From Chrysomallon squamiferum (taxonomy: Eukaryota > Animalia > Mollusca), in NCBI GenBank assembly GCA_012295275.1, contig CM022676.1, positions 8,866,001-8,930,000 on the forward strand: a stretch of DNA of 64,000 bases, given 5' to 3'. Positions 39,624-45,208 of the stretch are shown here, one piece after another. How positions within the stretch are numbered: the stretch's first letter is position 1; every line of letters starts with the position of its first letter. The notes under the pieces are model-generated. The model saw only the letters and a program-made list of their open reading frames with translations. It was not told the DNA's origin and made no database searches. The position numbers were made by a program, and so were the translations under genes.

Positions 39624-41066
39624 ATGACTAAAGTACGTCCGTCTCGAAAAAACCTCCACAAAACGTTTAAGAAGAAATGGTGGTTTTATTTGCTTTTTGT
39701 GCTTTTCTTCACGACTATTCTCGATAAAACAGGTAAACTGTTAATTGTGGCTAGAATTTCACAAATAATTAAAATAATCCTACACGAAATCAATACGAAA
39801 ACGAAGCCATGAGTACGCAAGAGCTTTTAATTCAGTTAATATTTCAGCCAGTGACAGTATTTAGTTTCTTTGTATTTACGGAGGCAGTTATATCATATAT
39901 TCACTCAGTGATGATGTGATGAATATAATCAACACTTACATTCTGTATGTGACGAATTCACTCAGTATTTGTAGGCAGGCATATTTTAATGAATGTATTG
40001 TCCATTTCTTATTAGTGATGTTATCATAAATTAATTCAGTATTTCTCATCAGTACTTTATTATAATTATTATTATTATTATTATTATTATTTTTTTGGTG
40101 ATGTTATGTTCTGTTTCAAGTCACTGTATTATAATGAATGTTCTCAATATTTGTATACATTCATATTTTAATTAACTTACGTTCTATATCAAGTCATTGT
40201 ATTGAGATGACGTCACTGAATGTTCGAAGACAATCATATTAAAGTTAATTCATATAGTATATCTGGTCAGCGGTATTAGGTTTTTTTTTTTTTCATTCAG
40301 CATTAGAATTCATTCATTCATTCATTCATTCATTTTCAGATGCTCCGGGATTACATACCCGTATCCTAAGAATAAACAAATTTGAGCTTCCATTTGTAGC
40401 TAAAGGGGTGTTTGATTGTGAGAGACAGTTCGTACACTGCATATGGGAATATCAGGTATGCACTAGAATGCTTTGTGGCTTGGAGTCTAAACTGTTATCC
40501 TGAAGAGCGATTGTTCGCAAGAAGGCTGATCTGACTCCAGCTGTAGCCTACAATTGTTACTGACTGAATATTTATAGAGTATGCGTTATATTTAAGATCA
40601 TTCGGTAGAGCACTTTGGGCCCTGAATTTAAAATCTTTGTTATTTTTTTAATAGTGACAACAACAACAAAAGCAACTGCAGATAAATAGATAACAAGATA
40701 GATAGAAAGACAGACAAACAGATTGATAGATAGACAGATGGACTGATCAACAAATAACTAAAAAAAGAAATAAAAATTAATTATTATAGCAGCAGCCTTT
40801 TTACTAATTGTACCTTTTTTTTTTTGATTAACCGTTTTTGTTCTCCTGCTTTGTATTATCATTATTATTATTATTATTATTATCATTATTATTATTATTA
40901 TTATTGTAGTTGTTGTTGTTGTTGTTTTTGCTGTTGCTGTTGTCGTTCTTATAGTTGTTGTTGCTCTTATTGTTGTTGTTCCTCTTTTTTTGGTCTTCTG
41001 TTCTTCTTCGTATTATTACTGTTATTGTTATTGTTGTTGTTGTTATTGTTATTGTTGTTGTTGTTG

Positions 41067-41148
<82 letters not shown>

Positions 41149-41531
41149 AGCTAGAAGGTAAAAAACGTATTGCGTTTCCTTCCAAGTTCTCAACAAGTCA
41201 AAACCTGACACCTGGCTGCTATTCAGTGTATACGACTACGACAGTATGCACACTGTATTTGGAGAGCAGACCTTCTTTTCTAGTTGGCAAAGGTTACATC
41301 GTATTAAGGACTCAATCTGGTTATAGAGTATCTACACAGTTGTTAACTTTCACAGGTAAATATAGGAAGGAAATATTTGTTGATGGTAAACATTAGGGTA
41401 ATGCAGTGAACATTTTCCTCTCATAAACTTTGTCACATTAATCGTGAGACGTGATGAATTGCATTCAGACAATGCCACAGCGATTCATCGATTGTGCAAA
41501 TCGGCTAAACTATGTACGTGATGACGTAACA

Positions 41532-41573
<42 letters not shown>

Positions 41574-41875
41574 GTTGTTGTTGTTGTTGTTTTTGTTGTT
41601 ACCGTTATTATTATTATTATGAATATGATGATTATTATTGTTATTATGATTATTATTATGATTACAATTATTATTTCAGATTCCAGTGCCAATAGGGCTC
41701 GTTCTCCAGCCAAACTTCCTAATGGTACGACTCCTGCTGCATGTTCTTCCACGCCACTGTTTTTTATAATGTAAAACAATTACTTTTTATTTCAACATAC
41801 GATCGTATACATAATTAGATATCTACATGCATGCCTACTTACATACCTACATACATACATATATATAAACAGAGA

Positions 41876-41963
<88 letters not shown>

Positions 41964-42288
41964 AAATAAATGATGGAAGACAAAATAAAGGCCTGCTTCG
42001 AGGGATGCGATGGTTACACTCGGTTATTGAACAATTTCTTTGCGACGTTGTCCTCATGTCCGAAGGTAACGTCGTCTGCCTACGAAACACGACCGAATGG
42101 GTGCCATATGTTCGAATCTTGTCAGCGGCGTTTCTTAATAAAATTTCTGAATGGTTTGTTTAACATTCAAAATCGTTAGCGATCACATTATCTACTATGC
42201 TTTCAATCTACTGATTCATTCATTATTTTTGTTCTCTTTTATTTCTAGTTTTGCCGTCGCCGTCATCTTCGTCATTGATTGGCCATAG
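39624..42288 (+). CDS. Family B gene B1: 186 aa putative GPI-anchored surface protein; exons 39624-39732, 40340-40455, 41151-41355, 41680-41770, 42249-42288
   Basis: [88 protein letters not shown]...[30 protein letters not shown]...[48 protein letters not shown]. All GT-AG; phases 1,0,1,2 close exactly (561 nt). Confidence 0.72.
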
Positions 42289-42577
42289 CTGATTGTCACA
42301 AACTTTCATTAACAGCAACGATAAATTTTATATTCGCAACTTTCGCGAAATCTGTTTTCATCTTGAACAGAAAATAGCTGAAACCATTATGATGACAACG
42401 GTACTTTGATATCAAGGCGCCATTTTCTATGTTAACCTCATTCAGAGTTAGTTCTAACAATTTCTTACACGAAATAATCGATTATATTCAAACAATGTTG
42501 ACTGTATCGATTTCATTGAAGTATAGGTATGACTCAGAATTTTTACATCTAGATCGAAATTACTCTTTTTCTTCTTC

Positions 42578-42616
<39 letters not shown>

Positions 42617-42757
42617 ATTGCTCATTTCTAAATGATTTATTACAAGTGTTTTTGGTAAACGATGGTTACTGTTAATGTTTCAAAGAGATAAAAGTTTTGT
42701 TTAAAAGTTTCTGTGTTTTTTGTCTTATATGCCTATGTATATGTACATGTGTATACA

Positions 42758-42830
<73 letters not shown>

Positions 42831-42850
42831 AAATAGACAGATAATGTATC

Positions 42851-42909
<59 letters not shown>

Positions 42910-43406
42910 CTGGGATTGCAGAATATAATACCTTAATAGTTTAACCTGCATTCTACGAAAAATTTTCCATATATATAAACAAAATAAAAAATAAAAACGA
43001 ACAGAAACTATAGCGATAATTCTCGTGATCCCAGCTGATTTAAAACCAGTGACGTGGACATCTTTTACGTCATTGTTTCAGATTTGACGCAAGAGCAGAC
43101 ATGTTCTACGTATATTGATGCTTGCCAGGTGATTTGCTTTCCATTATTGTCATTTGTAGTAGTAGTAGTTGTTGTTGTGGTATTGTTCTTGTTCCAATAA
43201 CAGGCGTACGAGAATGACATTCATACGTCATGTAGAATTCTTTTCTGAAAGCGGTGTAACTGATATTCTTTGCTTGCATCTCGGTACAGTCTTTGTGCTG
43301 TAATATTAACTGGCCGAAATTTAGAAACACATGATTTTGTTTTCGTCTCAGTAGAATTTAAAATACGATGCACGAAGCTATTTTCCATTTACTTTTCTTA
43401 ACTTAG

Positions 43407-43448
<42 letters not shown>

Positions 43449-43904
43449 TAAGGACATCAGTTTTAGAGCTCCGTTAATAACAGTCCGTATACTGAATTAC
43501 AGTACATAAAATAAAGGAATAAATTTAAAGGTTTCTTTTCTTTAACAAGTTAATTTCTTAAATTTGTAGGAACTGTTAGAGAAAGAAATGTCAAATTCAG
43601 TACTGATTTTATTAATAGAAGAAATTCAAAATATTTAAAATGATTTAAGACTCGTGACGTAGATAGGAAACTAGAGCTAATAATGGCTCGTTAACTACGA
43701 TAAAGATGTTACAGCTTCCGGTGATGCCAAAATACAAACTTTCATTACAATAGCAGGCTAATACAAGTATGCGTGTACGTATCTATGTATGTGTGTGTGC
43801 GTGTGTGTGTGTGTGTTGTTTAGGTGATCTTAACTATACCCTTGGAACTACAACAACAATAAAAACAGCAAGAATAAAATAATAACAACAACAACAACAA
43901 TAGA

Positions 43905-43979
<75 letters not shown>

Positions 43980-43984
43980 GAAAA

Positions 43985-45208
43985 ATGACTAAAGTACGTC
44001 CGTCTCGAAAAAAACTCCACAAAACGTTTAAGAAGAAATGGTGGTTTTATTTGCTTTTTGTGCTTTTCTTCACGACTATTCTCGATAAAACAGGTAAACT
44101 GTTAATCGTGGCTAGAATTTCACAAATAATTAAAATAATCCTACACGAAATCAATACGAAAATGAAGCCATGAGTACGCAAGAGCTTTTAATTCACTTAA
44201 TATTTCAGCCAGTGACAGTCTTTAATTTCTTTGTATTTACAGAGGCAGTGATATCATGAATACACTTAGTGATGGTATAATGAATATAATCAACACTTAC
44301 ATTCTGTATATGACTCAGTATTTGTAGACAGTCATATTTTAATGAATGTATAGTCCATTTCTTATTAGTGATGTTATGATAAATTAACTCAGTATTTCTC
44401 ATCAATATTTACTTTTTTACTTTTTGTTATCTTATGTTCTGTTTGAAGTCACTGTATTACAATGAATTTTCACATTTTTTTGTACACATATTTCAATTAA
44501 CTTACGTTATATATCAATTCATTGTATTGAGATGATATCACTGAGTGTTCCAAGACAATCATATTAAAGTTAATTCTGGTCAGCGGTATTAGGTTTTTTT
44601 CATTCAGCATTAGAATTCATTCATTCATTCATTCATTTTTCAGATGCTAGAGGATTACGAACCCAGCTCTTTCAATTAGACAAAGTTCAGCTTCCATTTG
44701 AAGTTGACGCGGTGTTTCATTGTCAGAGACACTATGTGCAGTGCGTGTGGGAATATCAGGTATGCACTAGAATCTTTTGTGGCTTAGAATCTAAATTGTT
44801 ATCTTGAAGAGTGATTGTTCGCAAGAGGGTTCATCTGACTCCAGCTGTAGACTACAGTTGTTACTGACTGAATATTTATAGAGTATACGTTATATTTAAG
44901 ATCATTCGGTAGAGCACTTTGGGCCCTGAATTTAAAATCTTTGTTATTTTTGTAATAATGACAACAACAACAACAAAAGCAACTGTAGATAAATAGATAA
45001 CAAGATAGATAGAAAGACAGACAAAGAGAATGATAGAGAGACAGTTACACTGATCAACAAATAACTAAATAACTAATAATAATGAATTATTATAGCAACA
45101 GGAGCCGTTTTACTACTAGTAGTAGTAATAACATGAGTAGTAATACCGTACACTATACTTTTTTCTTTATTATTGTTTAACCATTTTTTCTCCTTTTTCT
45201 TCTACTTC

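Follow-up and report, generated by a model that had tools for sequence, protein, structure and literature searches.

Two described systems come closest to the locus reported here. Red and green opsin exon 5 is presented, in the part of a review that was available (PMC3924837), as a peak of divergence under gene conversion, as treated in the Teshima-Innan model. Bovine CEACAM32 is described, in the accessible portion of its report (PMC7042247), as an escape from concerted evolution, with conversion in leader and intron and not in the domain exons. A comparable arrangement is present in a 64,000-nt stretch of the genome of the mollusc Chrysomallon squamiferum (assembly GCA_012295275.1, contig CM022676.1, positions 8,866,001-8,930,000, forward strand), hereafter the window, to which all coordinates refer. 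The window consists of AT-rich (G+C 20-35%), microsatellite-rich animal DNA, and a masked self-comparison reveals a gene family, here called family B, in three tandem copies: B1 (39624-42288), B2 (43985-46908), and B3 (48599-56010). Like the human red and green opsins, so far as that part of the review describes them, family B combines tandem duplication, low intron divergence, one high-divergence exon, and conversion. Like CEACAM32 in the portion cited, it encodes a predicted surface protein in which leader exon and introns have been converted and the exon for the N-terminal part of the extracellular domain has been spared. We lean towards the view that family B is an orphan family of surface proteins undergoing gene conversion and that selection maintains exon 2 as its divergence peak.

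The concentration of change in exon 2 is real and beyond chance. In three-way alignments, 38 of 114 columns are variable in exon 2, compared with 47 of 204 in exon 3 and 151 of 1348 in non-coding DNA (exon 2 versus non-coding, p = 3e-9). Copies differ by 20-26% in exon 2 and by 6-10% in the adjoining intron blocks, and in all three pairs a Fisher test of exon against intron gives p between 3e-6 and 1e-5. Exon 2 also lies above each of the seven alignable non-coding blocks, by a factor of 2-7 (p = 0.007 to 4e-9). B2 and B3, for example, are 20% apart in exon 2, while the flanking blocks on both sides are 6-7.5% apart. The counts given for B1 and B2 in an initial annotation of this DNA, which considered exon 2 at 40340-40455 and 44644-44759, are borne out: 20 of 39 residues differ (junction codon included; 30 of 116 nt), the sole purely synonymous codon difference is codon 68 (GTA/GTG), and LPF, Cys63, Cys70, and WEYQ are invariant. 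The flanking introns do align closely, with 6.7% divergence in intron 1 (404 columns) and 8.1% in the 5' part of intron 2 (173 columns), and exons 1, 4, and 5 differ at just 1/109, 1/91, and 1/40 nt.

In every copy the coding sequence is divided among five exons bounded by AG and GT. Contigs from five of 12 listed public sequencing runs (X2, X3, X8, X9, and X10) were compared with the window, X8 and X9 being RNA runs from one study. The features of family B are as follows.

39624-39732, plus strand: B1 first coding exon (109 nt), encoding a basic N-region and a hydrophobic stretch, the predicted signal peptide; an RNA contig from X8 covers 39628-39732 with 0 differences.
40340-40455, plus strand: B1 exon 2 (116 nt), encoding the start (~38 residues) of the predicted mature domain, with Cys63 and Cys70; the divergence peak.
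41151-41355, plus strand: B1 exon 3 (205 nt), encoding the remainder of the domain, with Cys98 and Cys108.
41680-41770, plus strand: B1 exon 4 (91 nt), encoding a Ser/Thr/Pro/Ala-rich stalk and the beginning of the hydrophobic tail.
42249-42288, plus strand: coding part of B1 exon 5, a hydrophobic C-terminus followed by the stop codon; predicted glycosylphosphatidylinositol (GPI) signal.
43509-43626, plus strand: B2 upstream tract, identical to the B3 upstream tract at 48211-48328.
43985-44093, plus strand: B2 first coding exon, 1 nt different from B1.
44644-44759, plus strand: B2 exon 2, with RNA contigs in X8 and X9.
45511-45715, plus strand: B2 exon 3, chimeric, B3-like to ~45625 and B1-like from ~45650.
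46133-46223, plus strand: B2 exon 4, 1 nt different from B1; the joint 46223-46869 (GT..AG) is seen in RNA run X9.
46869-46908, plus strand: coding part of B2 exon 5.
48599-48707, plus strand: first coding exon of B3, the third paralog.
49285-49402, plus strand: B3 exon 2; in the window its reading frame is shifted by 2 extra bases near 49362.
50015-50219, plus strand: B3 exon 3.
50980-54626, plus strand: B3 exon 4 array of ten tandem degenerate copies, each a candidate 21-nt in-frame symmetric micro-exon (AG...GTAC) for an APSTTS-type heptapeptide.
54935-55001, plus strand: B3 exon 4 (67 nt), encoding the end of the stalk and the beginning of the hydrophobic tail.
55971-56010, plus strand: coding part of B3 exon 5.

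The initial annotation took the near absence of purely synonymous codon differences as extreme replacement bias in exon 2, and this does not hold up. In eight of the 20 changed codons, two or three positions differ and silent steps are hidden; at least four of the 30 differences between B1 and B2 are silent, or 6.5 by path averaging. By the method of Nei and Gojobori (NG86), the replacement rate (dN) is 0.31-0.32 and the silent rate (dS) 0.32, with their ratio, omega, at 0.95-1.35, or 1.2-1.7 with a kappa of 2.5. Thirty random changes placed on B1 exon 2 (20000 simulations) replace on average 19.0 residues (P of 20 or more, 0.41) and leave on average 3.8 purely silent codons (P of one or fewer, 0.09), so that neutral simulation reproduces the observed counts. 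Codons with a single difference carry replacements in 12 of 13 cases (p = 0.12-0.20). Maximum-likelihood (ML) omega of exon 2 over the three copies is 1.15 (p = 0.78), or 1.1-1.4 in a second model (p = 0.58-0.84), and the site-model check that the annotation had proposed, performed as M1a versus M2a, does not place dN/dS above 1 (p = 0.14-0.60); these codon models were run on three sequences with our own scripts rather than codeml. Tallying purely synonymous codons, as this case shows, overstates positive selection.

A joint model of intron and codon change leads to the same result, namely that silent and replacement change in exon 2 are raised about equally. The proposed comparison of exon 2 dN with intron divergence is upheld in that exon 2 stands far above the introns, but a general rise accounts for this better than a rise of replacements only: the general factor is 3.6-4.6 times the intron rate, a 4.6-fold factor alone fits slightly better than an omega of 5.3 alone, and the fit improves when the general factor is joined to omega (p = 0.018) but not in the opposite case, when omega is joined to the general factor (p = 0.47). 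Strong positive selection acting recurrently on exon 2 itself, under which omega would be well above 1, silent sites would remain at the intron level, and multi-difference codons would have arisen via successive replacements, is on this evidence quite unlikely. It draws on the omega of 5.3 obtained when the silent rate is tied to the introns (p = 3e-11 versus neutral), on five codons (39, 47, 57, 58, and 62) with M2a posteriors above 0.8, and on strict four-fold sites, which differ at 1/7, 0/7, and 0/8 across the three pairs and lean towards replacement bias but are too few to decide. Since these sites differ little, the silent excess of exon 2 comes from multi-hit codons. The tied model is, however, rejected for one with a raised silent rate, at least four silent steps between B1 and B2 are unavoidable, and both the simulated counts and the site models agree with neutrality.

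Gene conversion or exchange among the family B copies is evident. B2 and B3 differ at none of 118 columns of their upstream tracts, with B1 15% away, an identity that indicates recent exchange, while at the 3' end it is B1 and B2 that form the close pair (3.5% versus 8-9%). Within exon 3, informative sites switch from those at which B1 is the odd copy to those at which B3 is, near nt 115-140 (10 runs versus 25.1 expected, p = 1e-5); B2 exon 3 is a B3/B1 chimera. The runs test finds no exchange tract in exon 2 (p = 0.54), where the three copies have diverged evenly. Homogenisation of exon 1 and the introns had been named in the initial annotation as a possible full explanation of the contrast with exon 2. 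Conversion clearly operates but does not account for the whole contrast, since exon 2 still exceeds the least-homogenised non-coding block (33% versus 18% of columns variable, p = 0.007).

Replacement bias, where present, sits in exon 3 rather than in exon 2, and at borderline strength. The initial annotation had overlooked both B3 and the divergence of exon 3, in which B1 and B2 differ at 22 of 68 residues (dN 0.20, dS 0.06). Here the joint model is improved by adding omega (p = 0.035) and not by adding a general factor (p = 0.37). For the whole domain (exons 2 and 3), the comparison of M1a with M2a gives p = 0.002, or p = 0.0005 with separate branch lengths for the three segments. Positive selection probably accounts for some of the replacements, and its signal is clearer in exon 3.

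All three family B genes are real and transcribed. Exon 2 of B1, B2, and B3 is covered by contigs in both RNA runs, and B1 exons 2 and 3 are joined in a single RNA contig in X8 and again in X9. A loose end past 44759 in X9 reads from B2 exon 2 into the start of exon 3, and one past 41770 in B1 continues with the first bases of exon 5, in the version found in B2 of the window; splicing of exon 2 to 3 and of exon 4 to 5 is seen. None of four runs, two RNA and two DNA, shows the 2-base insertion in B3 (49359-49363, together with one substitution there), which is probably an assembly error, or else a rare null allele; X10, with short pieces on repeats only, is uninformative on B3. The reading of B3 as a fixed pseudogene was rejected.

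These data also bear on the idea that mis-assembled alleles or a mutational hot spot in exon 2 produced the peak. The window does hold at least one probable error or rare null allele, the extra bases of B3, and codons with double hits are frequent (double-hit rate 0.1-0.3), as local hypermutation might leave them. X8, X9, and X3 each carry three exon 2 types, however, which is more than two alleles if a run represents one animal, and B1 and B2 were accordingly rejected as two alleles of one locus; DNA contigs, moreover, span the exon 2 types together with flanking intron. A hot spot should also act between samples, and the few covering samples differ from the window in exon 2 at 0-1 positions in B1 and one in B2, a single B1 variant, V56E, matching B2 and B3. 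Artefact or hypermutation is largely refuted and very improbable, and exon 2 differences between copies appear nearly fixed across these few samples. In exons 2 and 3, between-sample variants number 6 replacement to 7 silent (one more, beside an indel, being omitted), versus about 72 to 17 between paralogs (p = 0.011).

B1 exon 3 shows variation of its own. At 41157-41338, 10 of 182 nt differ from the window in X2 and X9, other combinations occur in X3 and X8, and intron contigs nearby differ from the window by ~1%. Candidate sources are long-standing alleles, conversion from a paralog not yet seen, and a fourth copy. Contig depth in X3 at B1 is about half that at B2 and B3, but it is not a measure of copy number and was left unused.

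The encoded proteins comprise 186 residues in B1 and B2 and 178 in B3, the latter without the possible micro-exons and with the two extra exon 2 bases skipped. If spliced, the B3 micro-exons at 50980-54626 would build a Ser/Thr/Pro mucin-like stalk. Hydropathy exceeds 1.8 solely in windows starting at residues 19-24 and 167-176 of 186, and because hydrophobicity is confined to the two ends, a signal peptide and a GPI anchor are predicted; the call comes from hydropathy and not from a dedicated predictor. The predicted protein has a signal peptide (exon 1), a domain of ~105 residues (exons 2 and 3), a short stalk, and a GPI-type hydrophobic tail. An N-terminal signal, a C-terminal hydrophobic tail, small residues upstream of it, and the lack of a cytoplasmic part are all found, as is the exon 4-5 junction in RNA. 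The domain contains cysteines at 63, 70, 98, and 108 and no others, along with N-glycosylation sequons. Exons 2 and 3 may together encode one disulfide-bonded, beta-sandwich-like domain, judging by an alternating hydrophobic pattern seen by eye, but without the canonical immunoglobulin (Ig) disulfide. That disulfide, between strands B and F, spans about 55-75 residues, and the cysteine spacing of family B fits neither an Ig nor a CEACAM-like disulfide.

The exon here called exon 1 is probably not the true first exon. An acceptor-like (ATT)n-AG lies 4 nt ahead of each first ATG (39600-39623, 43960-43984, and 48575-48598), and an RNA contig extends a further 114 letters on the upstream side of the first coding exon; on these two grounds an upstream exon probably exists.

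Family B appears to be an undescribed orphan in the databases and open literature searched. The queries were exon-sized pieces only, so the negative results are weak ones. The exon 3 alignment found no homologue among longer proteins (345 candidates) and none near its own length. Of 1.84 billion representatives searched with HMMER, three matched, all long proteins aligning by many short stretches; the two that were inspected are tandem-repeat sequences and were rejected as homologues. Exon 2 and exon 3 peptides gave no Pfam match at E 0.01 (none for 8 of 9 peptides, and one chance match at E 0.054), PDB sequence searches returned nothing under E 0.6, and neither of these exon-sized searches linked family B to an Ig family by sequence or profile. 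No paper on family B was found among open papers. An AlphaFold model of exon 3 alone was unusable, with a predicted local distance difference test score (pLDDT) of 40. Submitted as two chains, the exon 2 and exon 3 peptides scored 0.43 against 0.02 for the best control, with contacts agreeing to 39% or more and a partner pLDDT of 41 or higher; this score is rated weak, as only 5 of 78 solved complexes but 4 of 4 passing mismatches fall in that range, and two halves of one gene may pass because they resemble solved folds. Atlas rows scoring under 0.9 include IPT/TIG and serve as leads only.

The three tandem paralogs exchange DNA, and we propose that selection removes those exchanges that would overwrite each copy's version of the predicted cell-surface domain, leaving the signal-peptide exon, the introns, and the anchor exons free to homogenise. 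Silent and replacement change would rise together in exon 2 because both ride in a protected older tract, the silent sites being carried along and recording the older age of the duplicates. The three domain versions may bind different partners, such as microbial or self/non-self ligands. Of the initial annotation's proposal of positive selection on a ligand-binding surface, what survives is that selection on the mature extracellular domain is the likeliest cause of the contrast; the omega above 1 that it implied for exon 2 is not found.

A neutral patchwork could leave a similar picture: the copies would be older than their introns suggest, conversion tracts would have missed exon 2 by chance, and the domain would have drifted under relaxed constraint with omega near 1. 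The exon 2 omega of 1.1-1.4 and the fit of a general rate factor without omega agree with this, as does the patchiness of non-coding divergence (0-16% by block). A (TTCA)n repeat, unequal in length between copies, abuts exon 2, and it has been suggested that microsatellites block conversion, according to the part of the sea urchin study available (PMC3342357). The peak nevertheless falls on the same exon in 3 of 3 pairs and above the most diverged non-coding block (p = 0.007), and divergence also drops at the 3' edge of exon 2, where there is no repeat. The four cysteines, LPF, and WEYQ are kept, the three copies are present in RNA, and between-sample variants lean silent. We consider a neutral origin fairly unlikely, though more probable than the other alternatives.

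Several points weigh against selection-maintained divergence. The comparison comprises three sequences from one species with no orthologue, and no model supports an exon 2 omega above 1. Exon 3 has itself been exchanged and is therefore not fully protected; it lies above the introns yet not above three upstream blocks (p = 0.07-0.26). The codon models contain no strongly conserved site class (M1a collapses to neutral), which fits relaxed constraint too. Double-nucleotide changes are a known source of false positives in such tests, as set out in the part of a preprint available (bioRxiv 10.1101/165969), and with these changes allowed the site-model comparison weakens to p = 0.058 for the whole domain and p = 0.048 for exon 3. 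The variant list is incomplete and contig-derived, with both RNA runs from one study, and up to five undisplayed variants, if all were replacements, would move the polymorphism contrast to p = 0.05-0.12. Finally, the ligand-binding role of the domain is suggested by its anatomy and neighbourhood, the searches having found no homologue, family, or reliable fold.

That neighbourhood includes a second family, family A, at 5474-6294, 13346-14050, and 18557-19291, with a broken copy at 26792-27120. Its genes consist of a signal exon and one exon of 113-116 amino acids with a predicted V-type Ig fold, three intact Ig-sized exons lying at 5947, 13703, and 18953; the exon 3' of the Ig exon has no obvious shared frame. 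The best of five structural models is a beta-sandwich with a pLDDT of 69.7 (33-48 in the others), and a fold search with it gave 18 matches at E of 0.001 or below, all from entries that contain antibody or nanobody chains, with template-modelling (TM) scores of 0.52-0.66. The Atlas clusters closest to it (0.95) have no characterisation, and Mollusca is the record for two of three, in keeping with a mollusc host; a homologue search found none. Residues 26-66, a region picked after viewing the alignment, have dN of 0.70-1.04 versus dS of 0.26-0.43, a replacement excess stronger than that of family B exon 2. Profile comparison of families A and B detected no relation (probability 1.2 and 0.2).

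Between families A and B lies a recent 4-kb tandem duplication (29948-33940 and 33935-38033, 88-99% identical), and near-identical blocks (98-100%) at 15612-17817 and 20860-23063 hold several degenerate family A signal exons and no Ig exon. Five other open reading frames of the window, including two from the 4-kb duplication, have no Pfam match. Dispersed repeats at 4055-4492, 27861-28367, 61394-62074, and 25506-25904, likewise without a Pfam match, resemble decayed DNA-transposon fragments.

Families A and B form a candidate cluster of variable surface or secreted proteins, given the modelled fold of the one and the predicted layout of the other. It is conceivable, though unlikely, that the whole is an undescribed mollusc recognition cluster. 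In it, orphan GPI-anchored family B proteins, their binding domains kept distinct under conversion, their half-domains shuffled by chimerism, and one stalk lengthened by ten 21-nt micro-exons, would have as neighbour family A, hypervariable and with a single V-type Ig domain, as a jointly diversified system distinguishing microbes, symbionts, or self. Few variable surface receptors have been characterised in molluscs, and family B with its Ig-fold neighbours is a candidate recognition locus. Demonstration of a function would extend the known receptor families by one and provide a tractable case in which to test selection against gene conversion.

Among known systems, snake PLA2, the mature regions of conotoxins, and abalone lysin exemplify accelerated evolution, with dN/dS clearly above 1. 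They resemble family B in combining a conserved signal exon and introns with a hypervariable mature exon; family B differs in an exon 2 dN/dS of about 1, and nothing in it points to a toxin or gamete protein. From the opsins, as the cited part of the review presents them, it differs in being known from one species with three copies, one of them a chimera. From CEACAM32, in the portion of the report noted above, it is set apart by the lack of a detectable CEACAM or Ig sequence relation, by a domain that extends over two exons, and by cysteine spacing of 63-70 and 98-108. Biomphalaria PTC1 and PTC2 (PMC10875847) and sea urchin Sp185/333 (PMC3342357), so far as the available parts of these papers describe them, share with family B lineage-specific tandem genes, repeat-rich DNA, diverse extracellular parts, and exchange. 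The PTC genes, in the same part of that paper, encode transmembrane proteins of 300-570 amino acids with high allelic diversity, in contrast to the 178-186 amino acids of family B, its lack of a cytoplasmic tail, and an exon 2 diversity that lies between copies and not alleles. On the evidence here and in those excerpts, PTC1/PTC2 and Sp185/333 are best regarded as analogues and not as demonstrated relatives. The evolutionary process at this locus is already known, and the gene family itself appears to be undescribed.

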